Below are positions 19,257-51,098 of a DNA stretch of 64,000 bases, piece by piece. The translations under genes were made by a program, and so were the position numbers. The stretch lies in contig JAFLBX010000002.1 of the NCBI GenBank assembly GCA_017303675.1, positions 1,300,411-1,364,410 of the forward strand, given 5' to 3'. This stretch comes from Ignavibacteria bacterium. Its GTDB lineage: Bacteria; Bacteroidota; Ignavibacteria; Tepidaquicellales; OLB5. Under the pieces are notes generated by a model that saw only the letters and a program-made list of their open reading frames with translations, did no database searches and was not told the origin of the DNA. The stretch's first letter is position 1. The number at the start of each line of letters is the position of its first letter.

Positions 19257-20840
19257 ATGAAAACTACTATTGCTGTAATTTTATTATTCATTACCTCATC
19301 CATATACTCTCAGTCATCCTATACCAATATCCAGATAAGCGGAAACGGAGGCCCTAATGAACCTTCGATATGCGTAAATCCGAAAAATACCAATCAAATT
19401 GTAGCAGGCGCAAATACAGATAAAGTTTACCGCTCTTCAGATGGCGGGTTAACATGGACAAGCAGCATACTATCAGGTACATATACTGTGTGGGGAGACC
19501 CCTGCATTATTACCGATACACTTGGAAATTTTTATTACTTCCACTTGGTTAACGGCGCAAGCTTTATTGACAGAATGGGTGTAAATAAATCAACTAATGC
19601 TGGTGCAACATGGAATGCCGGTACATACTGGCAGTTCAATGGAAAGCAGCAGGATAAAGAATGGGCTATCACAGACTGGACCCACGGCCCGCGCGGAAAC
19701 TGGATGTATGTTGCGTGGACTGAGTTCGATGATTACGGAGTATCAAATCCTGCGGATAGTTCAAGAATATTGTTTGCCCGTTCAACTGATCAGGGGGCAA
19801 CTTTCACCGGTATTAAAAGGCTTAGCCGCTACGGCGGCAACTGTGTTGATGAAGATTATACCACGGAAGGTTCAGTTCCGGCAGTGGGACCTAACGGTGA
19901 AGTATATGTTGCATGGTCCGGTCCCCTAGGCGTTAACAACTTTAAAATATTTTTTGATAGATCAACCGATGGTGGTTCAACATGGCTTGAAAACGATATA
20001 GTTGCAGGCACTCAGCGCGGCGGCTGGGATTATGTTGTAGCCGGAATTTACAGATCAAACGGCCTCCCGATAACTTTATGCGATATCAGCAACTCGCCTT
20101 ACCGCGGAACAATTTATGTTAATTATACAGATAGCGCAGGTCCCGCTGACCACGATGTTATGCTTATCAAATCAACAGATGGCGGCAATACATGGAGCTC
20201 ACCGATAAGAATAAACGATGACCCGGCCGGAAAAGAACAGTTCTTCACATGGATGACAATTGACCAGGTTACAGGTCATTTATATTGTGTGTTTTATGAC
20301 AGGAGAAACTATTCAAACACACAAACAGATGTTTATATGGCACGCTCAACAAACGGCGGTGTTACATGGGTGAACGAAAGATTAAGCTCTTCACCTTTCA
20401 CACCGGCATCCAATATTTTCTTCGGTGATTATACCAACATATCAGCGCATAACGGAGTTGTAAGGCCTATATGGATCAGGCTGGTATCAGGTACTTTAAG
20501 CGTTTGGACAGCAATCATTAACTTCCCGGTTGGAGTTGAACCCATTTCCACTGAAATTCCTTCAGCATTCGCATTGAAGCAGAATTATCCCAATCCTTTC
20601 AACCCTGTTACGAGAATTGATTTTGACGTTCCCGCAACCGGCGGAAATGATTCACGTGATATTACAATAAAAATTTATGATGTGAACGGAAAAGAAGCTG
20701 CTGTTATTGTGAATGGCAAGCTTTCACCGGGTTCATATAAATATGAATGGGATGCTTCATCTTATCCCAGTGGTGTATATTTTTACCAGCTTTCATCAGG
20801 CAGTTACACAGAAACCAAAAAAATGATTCTAACCAAATAA
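19257..20840 (+). CDS. T9SS-secreted BNR/sialidase-like protein with type A CTD
   Basis: Same motif set as neighbours plus QNYPNPFNP CTD. Confidence 0.85.
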   Translation: MKTTIAVILLFITSSIYSQSSYTNIQISGNGGPNEPSICVNPKNTNQIVAGANTDKVYRSSDGGLTWTSSILSGTYTVWGDPCIITDTLGNFYYFHLVNGASFIDRMGVNKSTNAGATWNAGTYWQFNGKQQDKEWAITDWTHGPRGNWMYVAWTEFDDYGVSNPADSSRILFARSTDQGATFTGIKRLSRYGGNCVDEDYTTEGSVPAVGPNGEVYVAWSGPLGVNNFKIFFDRSTDGGSTWLENDIVAGTQRGGWDYVVAGIYRSNGLPITLCDISNSPYRGTIYVNYTDSAGPADHDVMLIKSTDGGNTWSSPIRINDDPAGKEQFFTWMTIDQVTGHLYCVFYDRRNYSNTQTDVYMARSTNGGVTWVNERLSSSPFTPASNIFFGDYTNISAHNGVVRPIWIRLVSGTLSVWTAIINFPVGVEPISTEIPSAFALKQNYPNPFNPVTRIDFDVPATGGNDSRDITIKIYDVNGKEAAVIVNGKLSPGSYKYEWDASSYPSGVYFYQLSSGSYTETKKMILTK

Positions 20841-24817: not shown

Positions 24818-24850
24818 GCAGAGACGGCGCGGTAGGTCGTCTTTTTTTTT
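24818..24850 (+). terminator. GTAGAGACG-type palindrome acting as probable speB terminator
   Basis: GCAG-AGACGGC-GCGGTAG-GTCGTCT followed by a long T run. Confidence 0.55.
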
Positions 24851-43546: not shown

Positions 43547-45364
43547 TTACTTAATTAATACCATTTTTTTAATAATTGAATTATTTTCTGTCAGCATTCT
43601 GTAAAAATAAATTCCGCTTGATAAGCCTGAAGCATTAAATTCAGCTTTATAACTGCCTGCTTTTAACCTGTCATTAATTATAGTAGAAACAATTTGTCCC
43701 AGAGAGTTACATACATCAATTTTTACCCCTGTTAATTCCGGTACATCAAATTCTATTGTTGTAGACGGGTTAAATGGATTTGGATAATTCTGCCTTAAAG
43801 AAAATTGAGAAGGAATCTTATTGGATTCCGGCTCATACCCGGTAATATTATTATCGTAATTATATTTAAATACCCTGTATGAAAAGACACCTGCCGGAAG
43901 GTTCATAACAAGAGCTCTGGTTCCATCCGGTTTAACTTCAGTAACAGTAGGATTAACTGATCCCCAGCTTATTAAAGTATTACCGTTTTCAAGTCTTTGG
44001 GCAAAGCCCATTGCATTTCCGTAAATCGCAGGAGAATTTTTATACTCCCATACTTTTGTTGCAATGCGGTTAGTTTCATCCAGGATATACTCAACAGCCC
44101 TGGATTCAGATGGAGTATGATAATTACCGTTATCAAACATTATTATATTCCCGTTCAGAAGCCTCCTTATACCATGCTGATGAGAAAATCTCCCCGGATC
44201 ATTGGGGAAGCTGAACTGATTCTGCTTTCCTCCAAGTCTCCAGATAATATTGCCGGTTAACCTGTTTATTTTTGTGATTTCATCTAGATGTCGCGATGAA
44301 AGCAAAATATTTCCGTCATTGTCTGCTTCTAATGCATTGCCATGTATATAATCAATTTCAACTGCCAGAAAATCTTCATGAGTTGCATCTGTTATGGGAA
44401 TATGGTCCCAGCTTCTCCACTGAAATACAACATTTTTATTAACATCAATTTCCTGAATTATTAAACCTGTAACCTGTGCTGCAGGATTCCCGCCCTGGAC
44501 GATCTGGCTCATATCCACGATCTGTTTATCATAACTCATTAATAATGCATTCCGGTTCGGAAGTACCCGCAATTCATGTATATCTGTCAGGTAACCATTA
44601 CCGGTATAAAAGCTATCAACACGCACATAGTTAGTATCAAGCTCATAATACTTTCCCCCGTTCCTGCTGAAATATGTAAAATTACCATTAGGCTGACGGT
44701 TGAAATCAAATACCTGTGCGCTCATTTGCCTGGAGAAAACAGCGGAAGCATCGTTATTAAGTATTAACAGATGAGGAGTATTTGGTATTTGAACATTGAA
44801 TACTATATTCGACATCAAAATTTTACCGGGTGAAGGATTATCGGAAAAAATTACATTAATTTGAGGTATATCTTGAGAACCTGTAAATGAAGGTATATTG
44901 TTTTCTAGTTTTGAAATTAATTCCGCACTTAATTCATTTTCCAAACCTGTGAAATGAGATTGAATGAGAGGTCTTTCAGTTACGTAAAACGAATATTCAA
45001 ATGGTTCAATACTTTTCCCGCTTTTATCTTTAATAACAGATGAAAATTTTACTGCTATCTTTTCCCCATCAGCAAACCCGGTTAAGGTTTTAAAGATATA
45101 TGTACTTTTATCTGCTGATACCACACATGTATAACTATAGTTGTAATTTATACTGCCTGTAATTGTTACTGCGCCGGGTTTTAAAATTGAGCCTGCGTTT
45201 AACAGTGCATTCGGACGAATTGCTATTGCAGTATTTTTATTCACATATTTTGCATTTGGAACCGGGTCAAAATAGCTTAAATAGCTTTTACCGGCAGTAC
45301 CTGAAGCAAAAGTAAAAAAATTAAAGAGAATAATTGCAGTAAAAACTAAAAACGGTTTGGGCAT
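43547..45364 (-). CDS. Aryl-sulfate sulfotransferase-like protein with N-terminal Ig-like domain and T9SS CTD
   Basis: DYIHGNAL, WRLGG, SHQHG, FDNG, ENGNTLISWG; QNYPNPFNP CTD. Confidence 0.8.
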   Translation of the reverse strand: MPKPFLVFTAIILFNFFTFASGTAGKSYLSYFDPVPNAKYVNKNTAIAIRPNALLNAGSILKPGAVTITGSINYNYSYTCVVSADKSTYIFKTLTGFADGEKIAVKFSSVIKDKSGKSIEPFEYSFYVTERPLIQSHFTGLENELSAELISKLENNIPSFTGSQDIPQINVIFSDNPSPGKILMSNIVFNVQIPNTPHLLILNNDASAVFSRQMSAQVFDFNRQPNGNFTYFSRNGGKYYELDTNYVRVDSFYTGNGYLTDIHELRVLPNRNALLMSYDKQIVDMSQIVQGGNPAAQVTGLIIQEIDVNKNVVFQWRSWDHIPITDATHEDFLAVEIDYIHGNALEADNDGNILLSSRHLDEITKINRLTGNIIWRLGGKQNQFSFPNDPGRFSHQHGIRRLLNGNIIMFDNGNYHTPSESRAVEYILDETNRIATKVWEYKNSPAIYGNAMGFAQRLENGNTLISWGSVNPTVTEVKPDGTRALVMNLPAGVFSYRVFKYNYDNNITGYEPESNKIPSQFSLRQNYPNPFNPSTTIEFDVPELTGVKIDVCNSLGQIVSTIINDRLKAGSYKAEFNASGLSSGIYFYRMLTENNSIIKKMVLIK

Positions 45365-45596
45365 AGTTAACTTTTAAATGTATATTTACAAATGTAAAAG
45401 ATTGAATAGCTTAATACAATAATTAAATTCCCGGGAAAGTTAATAAATAGGGTTAGTTAAAAATAACAACTATGCCGGGGATACAGTTAATTTGAGTTAA
45501 CCGTACCCCTAAAATAGTCAATACTTTTTACCTTTTTAAAAATCTTAATTCACAATTGTAGGATAATTCTTACAAAAAAAATTTGAAACCAGTAAA

Positions 45597-46919
45597 TTAT
45601 TTTACCAAAGCCATTTTTTTGGTTTCTGAATACTTTTCAGTTTCAAGTTTATAAAAATATACACCGCTTGGATAATCTGAAGCATTCCATTCGGCTTCAT
45701 ATGTGCCGTAGTTTAAATTCTGATTTACCAATATATTTACTACCCTGCCTAAAGCATCAAATACAGATAATTTTACGTTACCTTTAACCGGAATACTGAA
45801 CTTTATTTTTGTAACGGGATTGAATGGATTTGGATAATTTTGAGAAAGCGAATAATTTTCCGGTATACTATTGCCCGTTTGTGTAATACCTGAGAAGTAA
45901 TAATTGCAGCGGGTAATGCCCCCGTTTGATCTTACGCCAAAACAAATTCCGCTGTTCCTTACATTTGTAAAATGCCTGTAGTTACCAGCAGGTGCTGTAT
46001 ATTCAATTGCCCAAGAAGAACCATACATCCCTCTGTATATACTTGTTGTGTTTCTGGTATACCAGCAATAACCATAAAAATCAACCGGTGCCGGGAACAT
46101 TACGAAGCCGGAAAAATTTCCTGTACCTAACGATGCTTGCGAAGACCAGTTAGCGCCATAATTTGAACTTCTTATAAGGTTAGTGCCGCCGGCCAAACCT
46201 TCGCCACCGCCAAAAAAAATCATTGCTAACGCATATGTATTAACTTCCGGAGCTGTTGATTGGGATATCCAGGTTGAGCCAAAATTAGTTGAATAATATA
46301 TTCTTGTATTATTTGTTCCAAACCAAATTGAACTATCAAGACCTGTATTAAAGGAATAAGGTGCCTGTGTGCCTATGAAAATTGAATTATTCCATCCTGC
46401 TTCAGTACCTGCCTGCGGCAGGTAGCAGCCGGCAGAATCCCAGTTTATACCGCCATTTGAAGTTTTAAAAAGTGACCACCTTCCCCCAGCTGGATCTCCC
46501 TGTGCAAATCCGTGCAGCGGCTGATTTCTTTTAAAAACTATACCGTTTATAAAACCACCGGGCTGGGAAAGTACCTGTACCCAGTTTGCACCGGCATTTG
46601 ATGTGCGCCAGATCCATGTATCACTGCCAACATAACCCGCCGTTATAGCTGTTGACGCATCTATTCCCCAGATGCTTACTAATGAAACAGTATTTGGGAT
46701 TCCCCCGCCGCTTACATTCAGCCAGTTCGATCCCCCATTAGTAGTTCTAAGGACGGTTCCGCTGTAACCGCAGACCCATATGTTCATTTCTGTTATCGGT
46801 GATACCGATGTCAGCTGAACTGTAACACCTGAAGTCTGCTCAACCCAATACTGGGAATAAGCTGAACACGTTAAAACCGAAAAGAAAAAAAATATGTAAA
46901 TTAATTTTTTCACATTCAT
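45597..46919 (-). CDS. T9SS cargo, YCF48/BNR-like propeller (paralog B1)
   Basis: RTTNGGSNW repeats; GDPAGGRWS; type A CTD. Confidence 0.8.
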   Translation of the reverse strand: MNVKKLIYIFFFFSVLTCSAYSQYWVEQTSGVTVQLTSVSPITEMNIWVCGYSGTVLRTTNGGSNWLNVSGGGIPNTVSLVSIWGIDASTAITAGYVGSDTWIWRTSNAGANWVQVLSQPGGFINGIVFKRNQPLHGFAQGDPAGGRWSLFKTSNGGINWDSAGCYLPQAGTEAGWNNSIFIGTQAPYSFNTGLDSSIWFGTNNTRIYYSTNFGSTWISQSTAPEVNTYALAMIFFGGGEGLAGGTNLIRSSNYGANWSSQASLGTGNFSGFVMFPAPVDFYGYCWYTRNTTSIYRGMYGSSWAIEYTAPAGNYRHFTNVRNSGICFGVRSNGGITRCNYYFSGITQTGNSIPENYSLSQNYPNPFNPVTKIKFSIPVKGNVKLSVFDALGRVVNILVNQNLNYGTYEAEWNASDYPSGVYFYKLETEKYSETKKMALVK

Positions 46920-46923
46920 TATT

Positions 46924-47790
46924 TTATTTTATTAGAACCATTTTCTTTGTTTCAGAATAATCTTCAGTTTCCAGCTTATAATAATAAACCCCGCTCGGGT
47001 ATGCTGAAGCATCCCAGTCAACTTTATATGATCCTGGCTGCAAATCACGATTGAGCAAAATTTCAACTTCCTTGCCAATCACATCGAAAACCGTTAATTT
47101 CACAAAACCGAAATCAGCAATACGAAAATCGATATAAGTTAACGGATTGAACGGGTTTGGATAGTTTTGGGAAAGTGAATAATTTTCGGGTACTTCTGAA
47201 GATATTTGATTTAAGCCCACTAATGATGTATCGCCATAAACTACGCCATCAATAATACATCCCCGCAGGTGTTCAACATAAAATATATTTCCGCTTTGCG
47301 TGTAAAGCTCCATGATACCGAAATTTCTGGCAAAAATTATACCGTTATTTCCCAATCTGAAATTCTTTGTTCTTCTAAATGTTCCAAAAAGTTCCCTTAA
47401 ATTAGTATCGCTGCAGACTTTATAATTTGCACCGCAGTCATATTTTATTGTATCATTCAGCGCTGCCGAAAGTGAATCTCCCATTCTATCGAAAGGTGAC
47501 CATTGGCATCCGTTGCTGCTAGAATAGTAATATCGGTTAGCTGTTAAAGAATCAATACGCTGATAATATCCGCCATATGAATAATAAATATGTCCATTGT
47601 AAATATTCGTACTTGTTACCTGTCTGCTGAATCTTCCTGACTGCCCGAACTGAGTACTGTAAAAAGAATAAACCCACTTATTTCCGGGCTTAAGGGGGAA
47701 ATATGATACAGCATCATTAATTTGTGAAATAATATAAACGCTATTTATATTAGCAAAAAATATTAATATTAATATTTTGTTAATTTTCAT
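46924..47790 (-). CDS. T9SS cargo of unknown function (paralog A1)
   Basis: YFPLKPGNKW, RIDS, GCIIDGVVYGDT; CTD. Confidence 0.8.
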   Translation of the reverse strand: MKINKILILIFFANINSVYIISQINDAVSYFPLKPGNKWVYSFYSTQFGQSGRFSRQVTSTNIYNGHIYYSYGGYYQRIDSLTANRYYYSSSNGCQWSPFDRMGDSLSAALNDTIKYDCGANYKVCSDTNLRELFGTFRRTKNFRLGNNGIIFARNFGIMELYTQSGNIFYVEHLRGCIIDGVVYGDTSLVGLNQISSEVPENYSLSQNYPNPFNPLTYIDFRIADFGFVKLTVFDVIGKEVEILLNRDLQPGSYKVDWDASAYPSGVYYYKLETEDYSETKKMVLIK

Positions 47791-47842
47791 TTATGATACT
47801 CCAATCTAATATATCAGTGAAATATTATTTTAAAGTGATACC

Positions 47843-49132
47843 TCATTTCACTAAAACCATTTTTCTTGTTTCTGTAAAGAAGCTTTGTTGAGAAGTCACT
47901 TCCTGAAGTTTATAATAATACACACCGCTTGGATAGGCTGATGCGTCCCAGTTAGCGATATACGTGCCGGGCTGAAGCTGTTTATTAATTATAACATCTA
48001 TTTCTCTGCCAATTGCGTCATAAATTGATAATTTTACCAAACCGTAATCTGTTATACTAAATTCGAAATTCGTAACCGGATTGAACGGATTTGGATAATT
48101 TTGGGATAAAGAAAATTTTTCAGGTACTTCGCCGCTGGTTTGGTTTACACCTTCCACGAATACATTGAACTTTGTAATACCTCCGTTCGACCTTACCCCA
48201 TACCCCACAATCGGCCAGCCGGAATTCCTTTCAACCCCGATATGATTATATGAGCCCGCAGGCGCTGTATAATAAACAAACCATTGTCCCGTGCCGAATC
48301 CATAATAAATTGAGCTGCTTGCATTCCTTACATACATTACATTTCCTGACCACATAGGAAAACCCGTCATTCCAACGATCAAACCCGATCCAAGAGAACC
48401 TATTCCTGTCCAGTTTACCCCGTAATTCGTGCTTTTAAAAATATTATTACCTCCAAAATATCCTGTTGTGTTTCCGTTCGGATCAAACCACAATGCTGTG
48501 ACATCCGTTTCAGGAGAAGAATTTTGTACCGTCCAGTTTGCTCCGTTATTTGAAGAATAATATATCCTTGTGTTGTTAGTTCCAAACCAAATTCTGGTTT
48601 GCGCGTAAGTCATACAATTTGAGTAACCCGCTTCCGTGCCTGCTTGGGGTAACCCTAAACCTGCTGAATCCCAAACAGCACCGTTATTACTTGTTTTCCA
48701 TATTGACCACCTTCCCCCAACAGGATCACCCATCATAAAACCCGTACTGTCATTTTTTATGCTTACAGCATTTATAAACCCATTAGCCTGGCTGAATACC
48801 TGCTGCCAGTTCGCACCTGAATTTGTTGTACGCCATACCCAGGTGTTGGTAGCATTGTATCCTGCTGCTAATACAAGCGAAGGCGTTACGGCAAAAATGT
48901 GATTCAAGGTAATATTCACGGGAATACCGCTTCCTGTAACATTAAGCCAATTGACGCCGCCATTTGATGTCCTAAGTACTGTACCGTTATCACCGCATAT
49001 CCAGGCATTGTTAAGATCAAAAACTGATACACAATTCAGACTTACCGTTACACCTGAATTCTGTTCAAACATTTGCGCAAAAGTAAGTTGTGAAGATATG
49101 ATCAAGATGATCAAAAGTAAAATTTTCTTCAT
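47843..49132 (-). CDS. T9SS cargo, YCF48/BNR-like propeller (paralog B2)
   Basis: Shares GDPxGGRWS, LPQAGTEAG, IWFGTNNTRIYYS with B1; CTD. Confidence 0.8.
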   Translation of the reverse strand: MKKILLLIILIISSQLTFAQMFEQNSGVTVSLNCVSVFDLNNAWICGDNGTVLRTSNGGVNWLNVTGSGIPVNITLNHIFAVTPSLVLAAGYNATNTWVWRTTNSGANWQQVFSQANGFINAVSIKNDSTGFMMGDPVGGRWSIWKTSNNGAVWDSAGLGLPQAGTEAGYSNCMTYAQTRIWFGTNNTRIYYSSNNGANWTVQNSSPETDVTALWFDPNGNTTGYFGGNNIFKSTNYGVNWTGIGSLGSGLIVGMTGFPMWSGNVMYVRNASSSIYYGFGTGQWFVYYTAPAGSYNHIGVERNSGWPIVGYGVRSNGGITKFNVFVEGVNQTSGEVPEKFSLSQNYPNPFNPVTNFEFSITDYGLVKLSIYDAIGREIDVIINKQLQPGTYIANWDASAYPSGVYYYKLQEVTSQQSFFTETRKMVLVK

Positions 49133-49143
49133 TATTTATTCTT

Positions 49144-50100
49144 TTATTTAATTAATACCATTTTTTTAGTTTCTGTAAAGACGTCCCGCTGGGACGTCTC
49201 GACCTTTAGCTTATAATAATACACGCCGCTCGGATATGCTGAAGCATCCCAATCGGCTTCATATGTGCCTGGCTGTAACTGCTGATTTACAAGGATTGCT
49301 GCTTCTTTACCGAGGGCATCGTAAATTGATAAAAGTGTTAACACACCCCGCCCTTCGGGCACCCCTCTCAAGAGGGGAACACTGAATTTTATTTTCGTAA
49401 CCGGATTAAACGGGTTTGGATAATTTTGAGATAATGAAAATTTTTCAGGAGTTTCTGTACTAAGCACACTTATACCAACAGGAAACGATGTATCACCATA
49501 CAAAACACCATCAATTATAGATCCCTGCAAAGTATAAGTGCAGCTAGAGCCTGCATAACAACCCATTACAGAACTTACTAAACCAATATATTTAGCGTAC
49601 CTTCTGAATTTAAAATATGTTGGTACATTCTGACCTACATATTTGGTTCTGTAATTATTTCCGAACATATTTATAATATTAGTATCCTGGCAGGATGTAA
49701 AATAACATGAATTACTAGTGAATATATTTGGCAGCATTTTTAAAGAATCAAGTAACATCTCATTTGGATTCCATGTACAGGAACCAGCAGCGGTATTGAA
49801 ATAAATATTTCCATTAGAACTATCGATCCGGATTCCATTATTTAGTTGAACTAAAAATGGTGAATAAGAATAGAACGAGCAACTACAAGGTGTGCCGTTT
49901 AAATCCAGGTTAAAATATTTATGTCCGTTATTTATAATAAATCCTGATACGCTCATTTTAATTTTACCGGAGCCGCTGGAGCCGGAATAATTATATATCC
50001 ACACATTACCTGTCTTAAGAGGCAGATATTTAACAATACTGGTATCTTGTGCAATAATTACAGAAAAATTAAAAAATAGTATTAAGAGTATTGTTTTCAT
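49144..50100 (-). CDS. T9SS cargo of unknown function (paralog A2), two palindrome-derived inserts in its CTD
   Basis: YLPLKTGNVW, RIDS, GSIIDGVLYGDT; CTD. Confidence 0.8.
   Translation of the reverse strand: MKTILLILFFNFSVIIAQDTSIVKYLPLKTGNVWIYNYSGSSGSGKIKMSVSGFIINNGHKYFNLDLNGTPCSCSFYSYSPFLVQLNNGIRIDSSNGNIYFNTAAGSCTWNPNEMLLDSLKMLPNIFTSNSCYFTSCQDTNIINMFGNNYRTKYVGQNVPTYFKFRRYAKYIGLVSSVMGCYAGSSCTYTLQGSIIDGVLYGDTSFPVGISVLSTETPEKFSLSQNYPNPFNPVTKIKFSVPLLRGVPEGRGVLTLLSIYDALGKEAAILVNQQLQPGTYEADWDASAYPSGVYYYKLKVETSQRDVFTETKKMVLIK
49175..49203. repeat. In-frame GTAGAGACG-type palindrome (encodes VETSQRDVF)
   Basis: AGACGTCCC-GCT-GGGACGTCT perfect 9-bp stem. Confidence 0.85.
49341..49378. repeat. In-frame double-hairpin element (encodes PLLRGVPEGRGV)
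   Basis: GCCC-TTC-GGGC and CCCCTC-TCAA-GAGGGG; GC-rich island in AT-rich gene. Confidence 0.8.
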
Positions 50101-50108
50101 ATTTACTC

Positions 50109-51098
50109 CTATTTTATTAAAACCATTTTTTTAGAGTCTGTAAAGACGTCCCGCTGGGTTTTCTCGACCTTTAACTTATAATAATAAACACCACTGGGAT
50201 ATGATGATGCGTCCCATTCTGCTTCGTAAATGCCGGGCTGTAACTGCTGATTTACAAGGATTGCTAACTCTTTACCGAGGGCATCATATACAATCAGTCT
50301 TGTAGAGATGGCCCCGTGGGTCGTTTCATTTTGCGGTATACTGAATTTAATTTTTGTAACCGGGTTGAATGGGTTTGGATAGTTTTGGGATAAGGAAAAT
50401 TTTTCAGGAATTTCTGTGCTAACGGGAATTACACCAACAGGAAAAGTTGTATCGCCGTATAATTGGCCGTTAATTATACACCCCTTAAGAACTTCTTCAG
50501 TATATGTCATCATTCCCTGGCTTCGTGAATAGACCTTACCTATTCCTCTTGCATAAACATGATATCCATAAGCTTCAAAATAATTTGTCCAGCCGAAGCT
50601 TTCAGATATGTAGGTTTGATTTAAAAAATTGTACGTACCGCGTGTGTGTGTGTACCATGAGCCCCCGGTAGAGCCGATGCAATACGTAAAAGCAGAATCA
50701 TTAACAGGTGTATTCAGACTGTCATTCAAACACTCAGAAGTATCATTACCCGATATATAAAGTGAATAGAAATTTCCTGTTAATGAATCTATTCTTAAAA
50801 AACTGTATCCTGATGTGTATTGATTGGTATAAATAATATAAGAATCGATTTTCATTTTATAATACAGGTGATTTCTGATTACCTGGGTACCCGTTATTAA
50901 TGCTGATATATATCCTGATCCTGGAGTGTAGTTACGATACAGGTTCCATGACCAGCGGTTTCCAACATTTAATGGATAATAGTTAAAGATACTGCTGTCA
51001 ATTACAGCCTTAATGCTGCTTTCCTGATGCGCATAAATTTCCGGAGATTTGCCATGTAGGGTAAATCCGAGTAAAATGATGACAAGGTATTTCATCAC
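50109..51098 (-). CDS. T9SS cargo of unknown function (paralog A3), two palindrome-derived inserts in its CTD
   Basis: YYPLNVGNRW, RIDS, GCIINGQLYGDT; CTD. Confidence 0.8.
   Translation of the reverse strand: MMKYLVIILLGFTLHGKSPEIYAHQESSIKAVIDSSIFNYYPLNVGNRWSWNLYRNYTPGSGYISALITGTQVIRNHLYYKMKIDSYIIYTNQYTSGYSFLRIDSLTGNFYSLYISGNDTSECLNDSLNTPVNDSAFTYCIGSTGGSWYTHTRGTYNFLNQTYISESFGWTNYFEAYGYHVYARGIGKVYSRSQGMMTYTEEVLKGCIINGQLYGDTTFPVGVIPVSTEIPEKFSLSQNYPNPFNPVTKIKFSIPQNETTHGAISTRLIVYDALGKELAILVNQQLQPGIYEAEWDASSYPSGVYYYKLKVEKTQRDVFTDSKKMVLIK

Follow-up and report, generated by a model that had tools for sequence, protein, structure and literature searches.

Two neighbouring genes, A2 and A3, lie at positions 49144 to 51098 of a 64,000-nucleotide stretch of DNA from an Ignavibacteria bacterium (the window; C2:1300411–1364410 of a 3.65-Mb genome with 38% GC). 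Both encode proteins that terminate in a type A C-terminal sorting domain of the secretion system of type IX (T9SS), referred to below as the tag, and the same loop of this tag is occupied by a different palindromic repeat in each gene. The two inserts are probably in-frame copies of two dispersed families of structured repeats, termed E1 and E2, that were fixed long ago and have been recombined between tags. The genes and the parts of the repeat in A2 were located as follows:

49144..50100, minus strand: gene A2, 318 amino acids, a T9SS cargo protein with a type A sorting domain at about 49147–49419.
50109..51098, minus strand: gene A3, 329 amino acids, a tandem paralogue of A2 that bears a sorting domain of the same type.
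49341..49380, minus strand: E1 copy in A2, 40 nt; its in-frame translation, (V)PLLRGVPEGRGV, forms the link from strand 1 to strand 2 of the sorting domain.
49362..49377, minus strand: E1 hairpin 1, consisting on the coding strand of the pyrimidine arm CCCCTC, the loop TTGA, and the purine arm GAGGGG.
49350..49360, minus strand: variable E1 hairpin (hp2), GCCC-GAA-GGGC.
49341..49349, minus strand: third arm of E1, GGGGTGTGT, which mirrors the purine arm GAGAGGGG except that T stands for A.

The tags of A2 and A3 were identified with the type A models PF18962 (Por_Secre_tail) and TIGR04183, and the full layout of tags and inserts given here is that of this one genome (G000). About 300 of its open reading frames terminate in a T9SS sorting domain, and the PorU sortase, the T9SS component that was searched for, is encoded as well (model NF033707, 917 bits against a cut-off of 420). 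Of 278 scorable tags, 221 have a distance of 24 amino acids from the PNPF motif to [FY]D, and a second count gave 241 of 297; the normal connection between strands 1 and 2 therefore comprises four residues after the proline, and an earlier reading of the DNA made from the sequence alone (the sequence-only reading) was right to treat a gap of four residues after NPFNPxTxIxFxxP as the usual state. This four-residue loop, with no insert, is found in about 80% of the tags. In A2 the loop consists of twelve residues, LLRGVPEGRGVL (8 extra; context ...FSVP-LLRGVPEGRGVL-TLLSIYD), and in A3 of ten, QNETTHGAIS (6 extra; context ...FSIP-QNETTHGAIS-TRLIVYD). Both inserts begin behind the same proline codon in the alignment, which bears out the claim that neighbouring paralogues carry different repeats at the same codon position. 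The tags of A2 (PF18962, 27.5 bits against a cut-off of 27; TIGR04183, 26.8 against 23) and A3 (PF18962, 28.9 bits) score barely above the cut-offs, probably because of the inserts.

In an AlphaFold2 model of the A2 tag (six strands, mean predicted local distance difference test score 78.8, predicted template modelling score 0.71), the insert is placed in a loop at residues 27–37, between strands 19–26 and 38–46, and a second insert of the same tag is placed at the tip of the last hairpin (residues 87–91). A Foldseek search with this model returned zero matches at E ≤ 0.001; a T9SS substrate tag (8glk_D) ranked third as a weak match (E = 0.012, TM 0.37/0.49). A search of 49100–50450 against Rfam returned no family at E ≤ 1.

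The layout of E1 is ATTCCCCTCT-TGA-GAGAGGGGTG (pyrimidine arm, loop, purine arm), followed by the variable GC hairpin hp2 and then by CGGGGTGTGT. The blocks CCCCTCT, AGAGGGG, and GGGGTGT stand in the class II triplex order of pyrimidine, complementary purine, and mirroring G/T arm, so that E1, as judged from its sequence, has the layout of a class II intrastrand-triplex motif, triplex formation being putative. On the plus strand the A2 insert reads GCCC-TTC-GGGC (49350–49360) and CCCCTC-TCAA-GAGGGG (49362–49377), and the two GC-rich hairpins reported to encode the A2 loop were thus both recovered. They fold much more stably than shuffled sequences: as single-stranded DNA the stretch reached −9.2 and −9.6 kcal/mol (z = −3.65 and −3.19), and as RNA −21.7 kcal/mol, compared with a mean of −6.7 for random coding windows. 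A chance origin of the hairpins was ruled out by these z-scores of about −3.2 to −3.7. Relative to the common form TCC-GAA-GGA, hp2 of A2 carries a compensatory change of T-A to C-G on both sides (Ser to Pro), and modest covariation of hp2 was measured across 13 copies (score 0.198 against 0.108 in shuffles; 1 of 500 shuffles reached it). The third arm covaries with the purine arm in related elements, in which AAGGAGGGG occurs with GGGGTGGT, and changed purine and third arms are paired in another (GGGGAGGGG with GGGGTGGGG). A mirror arm was found within 45 nt downstream of 64 of the 187 genomic pyrimidine/purine hairpins and upstream of 7. The spacer before the third arm is itself a hairpin of 9–30 nt, which is outside the 1–6-nt loop criterion for triplex motifs.

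A regular expression for E1 matched the genome 41 times, with 15 matches in tags and 25 genuine copies outside them. All 15 tag copies are in sense orientation, in one frame, and share the 5′ junction ATT CCC (Ile13-Pro14); their lengths from ATTCC to GTGTGT are 40, 46, or 67 nt, all equal to 1 modulo 3. For the 26 matches outside tags the lengths modulo 3 are 2 (15 matches), 0 (7), and 1 (4). The possibility that intergenic E1 copies are dead sorting domains was rejected, domain-like flanks being present in 0 of 25. Within the phylum the exact pattern of E1 has a patchy distribution, with 4 genomes positive among 201 sampled.

Elements resembling E1, with a constant inner hairpin CCCGGGTGAGCGCAGCGAACGGGC, were noted in two genomes from another family of the phylum, G214 (C1:1406660–1416469 and 3190026–3222224) and G053; there they form clusters that are regularly spaced, by 366 nt or about 630 nt, and that may lie within tandem genes. 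Many inner hairpins of E1 close on a GAA loop, some of them with GCGAAGC (e.g., C1:164130 and C1:910351). GCGAAGC is an unusually stable DNA mini-hairpin, and such inner hairpins would therefore fit a role for single-stranded DNA.

The copies of the second family, E2, that bear on A2 and A3, and its distant intergenic relative in the window, were located as follows:

50302..50327, plus strand: decayed E2 in loop 1 of A3, with the GTAG end on the non-coding strand; read (N)ETTHGAIS(T).
49175..49203, plus strand: intact E2 in the last hairpin loop of the A2 tag, antisense to the gene; read VETSQRDVF.
50140..50165, plus strand: decayed E2 in the last hairpin loop of A3, with 3 mismatches to the consensus; read VEKTQRDVF.
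24820..24844, plus strand: distant E2-like intergenic hairpin, terminator-like, having 9 pairs with a T-run behind them and lying 23 nt past a stop codon.

The palindrome in A3, GTAG-AGATGGCCC-CGT-GGGTCGTTTC, was present as had been described, with three G-T pairs in its 9-bp stem on the plus strand. By itself the hairpin does not exceed chance: z is −0.63 on the plus strand, and the mRNA strand forms none. That three transitions should all preserve wobble pairing on the same strand has a probability of about one in four by chance. The insert is regarded as real because of its membership of the E2 family and not because of hairpin strength: it departs from the E2 consensus GTAGAGACGNCCCNNNGGGNCGTCTC by 2 mismatches, with 0.00 matches expected by chance, and a chance origin was ruled out on this ground. 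The intergenic relative that had been placed at 24818–24842 does exist as a hairpin, but it is a distant one, with more than 3 mismatches to the consensus, and closer intergenic copies occur elsewhere in the genome. With this restriction, every observation of the sequence-only reading was confirmed at its position.

E2 is a short, GC-rich, imperfect palindrome (stem 9 bp, loop 3 nt, ~25 nt) of the form (T)GTAGAGACGNCCC-NNN-GGGNCGTCT(C); the GTAG-tagged palindrome measures 25–32 nt, and longer variants contain an inner hairpin. A strict census of the genome counted 35 copies: 28 between genes, 6 in tags, and 1 in a gene resembling those of the tyrosine transposases associated with repetitive extragenic palindromes (REP; the transposases are abbreviated RAYT); a seventh tag copy, at a contig end, is additional to this census. 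Many intergenic copies are situated 11–30 nt past a stop codon, several with a T-run after them. The sequence GTAGA is exact in about 18 of the 35 copies and is represented by GTAAA, GTACA, GTATA, or GCAGA in the others. Within the window the consensus gave 4 matches at 3 sites (0 expected), and four other tags of the genome carry E2 at the same loop in the orientation opposite to that in A3. The RAYT-like gene (C2:1022051–1022581) was matched by Y1_Tnp with 23.5 bits (cut-off 23) and by NCBIfam REP_Tyr_transpos with E = 2.6e-16 and 59.8 bits, below the equivalog cut-off of 80; four E2 units lie within 250 nt upstream of it, one lies inside it, and none lies downstream. Within the genus, 18 of the 19 genomes contain the E2 core, with copy numbers ranging from 0 to 33, and none of 12 genomes from the order's other genera does; this distribution would be an indirect sign of mobility. 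On account of its intergenic location at 3′ ends, its link to the RAYT-like gene, and its genus-limited spread, E2 behaves like a REP family of the GTAG type.

Over all tags, the loop between strands 1 and 2 was found to be occupied by E1, by E2 in sense orientation, by E2 in antisense orientation (A3), by a classical short-loop triplex motif (PLSFGEGLGV), and by a TCCCCCC hairpin. Measured against random coding windows of equal length, the folding of 24 of 47 loop inserts of at least 3 amino acids falls within the lowest 5%, compared with 10 of 235 normal loops. The reading that palindromes have repeatedly entered this loop would have been undermined by inserts that generally lacked dyad symmetry and had no relatives between genes. 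Both E1 and E2 have many intergenic homologues, most copies of either family being situated between genes, and it therefore withstands this test. Long loops without symmetry may have arisen as ordinary indels or may be elements that have decayed completely. The tag at 20553–20837 (PATGGNDSRD) had been proposed to hold a third family, which was rejected since its folding was not significant (p = 0.11). Perfect GC-rich hairpins with a stem of at least 7 form at least 44 families with at least 4 copies in the genome; their density is 1.2 per kb in intergenic and 0.07 per kb in coding DNA, and most families are strictly intergenic. A triplex-type insert at the same loop in another genus (L026) had no second copy in that genome at ≤2 mismatches, so the link to intergenic copies is not extended to that genus.

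At the last loop of the tag, a recurrent insert, (E)VSPSTGSGRGF, was observed in L020, in L029 (A3′ and B1′), and at C2:221678; in relatives and in the sister strain it stands where this genome has E2.

The inserts are not recent. Two sister species carry that of the A3 type intact at the corresponding place (GAGACGACCCGCCGGGTCGTCTCTACAAGA in L013 and GAGACGACCCACCGGGTCGTCTCTACAAGA in L020), the E2 copy in A3 is decaying (4 substitutions), and at least 9 species of the genus have tags with E1; outside this species, the closest orthologue of A2, with 64% identity, ends in a tag of a different subtype that lacks an insert. The counterpart of A2 in a sister strain, P0001, is 94% identical to A2 overall and 98.9% identical over the first 620 nt of cargo DNA, and its loop, together with ~150 nt around it, is an A3′-like tract with an E2 relic in place of E1. 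In the same strain the last loop of A3′ holds a different insert, EVSPSTGSGRGF, and the whole tag of B1′ has been replaced, the identity dropping from 95–100% to 35–60% at the tag start; B1′ carries an intact antisense E2, and B1 of the present genome has a normal loop. As to the array as a whole, that of the sister strain (scaffolds L029 and L030) reads A3′-A2′-B-B-605aa, compared with window positions 43547–51098, and gene A1 (window 46924–47790) is missing from it, so that strains ~99% identical in cargo DNA differ in gene and tag content.

No close donor for the E1 tract of A2 was found within the genome (best identity 79–80%), and the sole strain-level change caught was the gene-conversion tract of ~150 nt, with no transposition. 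Given the lack of a close donor and of a near-identical pair of filled and empty tags, present-day change is ascribed to recombination among tags and not to new insertion. The A2 allele with E1 was seen without differences in three metagenome runs. On a tag tree calculated after masking of the loop, 8 changes are required to place the 16 carriers of E1, compared with 15.7 for shuffled labels; they are thus partly clustered, and the 54 aligned residues are too weak a basis for counting events. The loop had been described as an independent landing site that received repeated insertions. This stands for the families, unrelated ones having entered the loop separately, and over evolutionary time; it does not hold for recent local events, because the contrast between A2 and A3 does not stem from recent local insertions, the A3-type insert being shared with two other species.

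Repeats of the same kind were also found in frame outside tags, in the RAYT-like gene and in the following three genes:

C2:1008988–1012056: gene of a 1022-amino-acid restriction-modification protein of the Eco57I type; a triplex-type repeat, PLLAKEGWREATGW, lies in frame within the Eco57I methylase domain (amino acids 543–556), just before the NPPY motif.
C1:2047560–2048582: queG; the repeat is read SPNPLLGKEGA, in antisense orientation, just after the QueG DUF1730 domain.
C1:1012383–1015355: gene of a 990-amino-acid protein; the repeat is read PPLTKGGQRGV.

Insertion is therefore not confined to tags. Neither a target-site duplication nor a shared target motif was found at the flanks of the inserts, and the conserved flanking bases (A before TTCCCC, T before GTAG) are part of the elements themselves; the search for a conserved target motif at the insertion point, which the sequence-only reading had proposed as a check, accordingly yielded nothing beyond element bases. 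That reading had left the choice between a targeting preference and strong purifying selection elsewhere. The frame classes of the E1 lengths and the in-frame copies in other genes both speak more for filtering by selection, with recombination between tags as the amplifier, than for strict targeting.

The preferred explanation of the A2 and A3 inserts would run as follows. E2 would be spread by the RAYT-like tyrosine transposase, of putative activity, beside whose gene its units sit, and rare insertions of repeats into coding DNA would survive only where extra residues are harmless. The tag would be tolerant as a transient signal that is predicted to be removed by the PorU sortase, and its tolerant spots would be the loop that joins strand 1 to strand 2 and the last hairpin's tip, both of which would point away from the core. 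Once present in one tag, a repeat would be amplified by gene conversion among the ~300 paralogous tags, which would explain why tags hold about a third to a half of all E1 copies. The excess of repeats in tags would accordingly arise because the tag is a transient, cleaved signal with two outward loops and ~300 recombining copies.

Several results weigh against this explanation. Tags make up 2.25% of coding DNA (72.8 kb of 3.23 Mb), and a minimum of ~5 independent acquisitions in tags compares with ~4 elsewhere, an excess that is still extreme at these lowest counts; tolerance alone may not be sufficient. The uniform orientation, frame, and junction of the E1 copies in tags fit a single origin or targeted insertion. 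At least 40 other GC-hairpin families occur only between genes and never in tags, so that only particular families gain access to tags. The score of the RAYT-like gene is under the NCBIfam equivalog cut-off, and its transposase activity is putative. Clean pairs of filled and empty tags were not found in this genome (best flanks 82% and 88% identity), and no empty-site allele was seen in four metagenome runs, in which assemblies break at tags and paralogues swamp the signal. As no insertion was caught in the act, insertion is deduced from homology with the intergenic copies. Finally, the arms of E1 are conserved at synonymous sites to a degree not expected of a passive passenger: the major base was found at 146 of 151 four-fold degenerate sites in E1 arms (96.7%) and at 71 of 127 in flanking tag codons (55.9%; Fisher p = 2e-17, 22 E1-bearing tags from 10 species). 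Selection may act on the DNA or RNA structure; alternatively, conversion may keep the copies uniform.

Targeted insertion, in which the repeats or the enzymes that move them would prefer a spot in tag DNA by virtue of a short sequence or of DNA structure, would account for the occupation of the same two loops by unrelated families and for a per-bp enrichment in tags of more than 100-fold. One version of it, in which a resident palindrome attracts another that replaces it, is in keeping with two unlinked arrays in which the closest relative of an E1 tag is a tag with E2 at that place and not an empty tag (flank identities 87% and 78% for A2 and A3, and 67% and 87% for C1_165813 and C1_169615). 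The ends of E1 (ATTCC... and ...GTG) match the commonest native codons at positions 13–14 and 19, with Pro14 present in 63% and Val19 in 80% of normal tags, so that micro-homology could guide integration. However, the flanks show neither a duplication nor a motif of their own, at least four unrelated genes hold in-frame copies, and the single observed exchange of E1 for E2 is a conversion tract from a neighbouring paralogue. The net gain in length (18–24 nt) is moreover below the element size (25–40 nt), and the inserts are therefore not simple cut-and-paste products. Targeted insertion, including a site preference through micro-homology or structure, is considered unlikely. Another possibility is that the nucleic-acid structure itself has a role, the repeat promoting recombination between tags or, close to the 3′ ends of cargo genes, causing a pause in replication, transcription, or translation. 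The near-invariance of synonymous sites in E1 arms speaks for it, as do the compensatory double change and the modest covariation of hp2, the conversion tract centred on the loop in the sister strain, and the association of Escherichia coli triplex motifs of this layout with local genome rearrangement (PMC4666352). Repeated conversion with other copies, or a recent spread, could nevertheless equally have produced this conservation; in A3 the E2 copy is clearly in decay and forms no mRNA hairpin, and about half of the long loops are without dyad symmetry. A structural role is accordingly judged a little less probable than targeting.

That the inserted peptides are useful in themselves, for instance as sites that the secretion machinery recognises or cleaves, with the DNA symmetry incidental, might be suggested by the recurrence of PL[LS]RGV..GRGV in many tags and species. 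The same element, however, occurs ~25 times between genes, where it is untranslated, very different peptides (LLRGVPEGRGVL, QNETTHGAIS, and PLSFGEGLGV) stand at the same loop, ~80% of tags manage with no insert, and a close strain has exchanged one insert for the other in a gene that is otherwise 98.9% identical; this explanation is very improbable. A further idea is offered as speculation and is improbable, at about the level of targeting. Rather than being passengers, the repeats might be retained in tag-coding DNA because their triplex-prone or cruciform structures make the two tag loops hotspots of breakage and recombination, so that tags and parts of tags would be exchanged among the ~300 cargo genes; by the same logic, one structured repeat might replace another at an occupied loop, in a structure-guided cassette exchange within a protein-coding domain.

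Compared with known systems, the preferred explanation, in which old in-frame copies are recombined between tags, places the inserts closest to the protein-coding palindromes of Rickettsia and to intragenic REPs. The Rickettsia palindromic elements (RPE) were reportedly described as "protein-coding palindromes" by Ogata and co-workers in 2000 and 2002. Like the present repeats, they are dispersed palindromes found in frame in genes that are still functional, with the resulting peptides in surface loops. They measure 100–150 bp, compared with 25–67 bp here (the RPE families were compared by description), and they occur in many unrelated genes, whereas nearly all coding copies here are held by one domain family, the T9SS tag, at two fixed loops, and would then have been passed among paralogues by gene conversion. 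RPE are mentioned by Di Nocera et al. 2013 (PMC3733652), who treat the REP/RAYT systems of the GTAG type. These resemble E2 in the GC-rich imperfect palindrome with a GTAG-like end, in the mostly intergenic position downstream of genes, in the inverted doublets by a Y1-transposase-like gene, and in a copy number that varies between species; REPs also occur inside genes, and different REPs were found at approximately the same recB site in two Xanthomonas species (PMC3733652). Unlike these systems, E2 has about a quarter of its copies within genes, almost all of those in one domain family, its GTAG is exact in about half of the copies, and the associated gene is below the RAYT equivalog cut-off and itself holds an E2 copy.

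Intrastrand triplex motifs (BoxC, PIT, and TM-ECO; Holder et al. 2015, PMC4666352) are multi-copy, intergenic, and linked to local rearrangement. E1 shares with them the class II order of pyrimidine block, purine block, and G/T block mirroring the purine, as well as the multi-copy, intergenic occurrence; it differs in that its second "loop" is a hairpin of 9–30 nt and of variable sequence, compared with the criterion of 1–6 nt (PMC4666352), in that it stands in frame in coding DNA, and in that its triplex is putative.

Exchange of tag-coding DNA has a precedent in the T9SS field. In the gingipain and haemagglutinin genes of Porphyromonas gingivalis, C-terminal regions have been exchanged among T9SS cargo genes. 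There, as here, tag-coding DNA is common to paralogous cargo genes and recombines among them; unlike those of P. gingivalis, the present tags carry small repeat insertions, and conversion tracts are as short as ~150 nt around one loop. What is new here are the concentration of the repeats in one secretion-signal domain and their spread by conversion from tag to tag, and the literature search found no report of repeats inside T9SS tags.

The inserts provide a natural map of insertion tolerance. The connection between strands 1 and 2 takes 6 to 17 extra residues in many species, the tip of the last tag hairpin likewise takes extra residues, and such a map would be useful for work on recognition by the secretion machinery and for tag engineering. 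They are also a clear case of "extragenic" repeats turned coding, since coding copies are all in frame and intergenic copies are of any length, with a visible route of amplification through gene conversion in a large paralogous domain family. The conservation of the E1 arms raises the question of whether triplex-type repeats are kept for a nucleic-acid role such as recombination. For annotation, it is of consequence that inserts lower the hidden Markov model scores of tags to the cut-off; insert-bearing tags are therefore easily missed.

Among 12 genes resembling Y1 or RAYT genes that were examined in the genome, 10 have at their flanks a GC-rich palindrome family that is specific to each of them, such as CCACGACC..GGTCGTGG and GTCGTTGGTG..CACCAACGAC. 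These genes, all outside the window, are located at C1:483378, C2:430890, C1:587270, C2:1530258, C1:97005, C1:437684, C2:1235686, C1:2037326, C1:773466, and C2:1022051, the last being the gene associated with E2. With a separate palindrome family at each of the ten, the genome thus holds many REPtron-like units. In two homologous RAYT-like genes, the gene's own flanking palindrome was also found in frame inside the coding sequence (C2:1022342–1022364 and C1:773730–773752), at an equivalent place between the HxH motif and the region of the catalytic Tyr, where it could serve as a built-in 3′ end of the element or as a self-regulating site.

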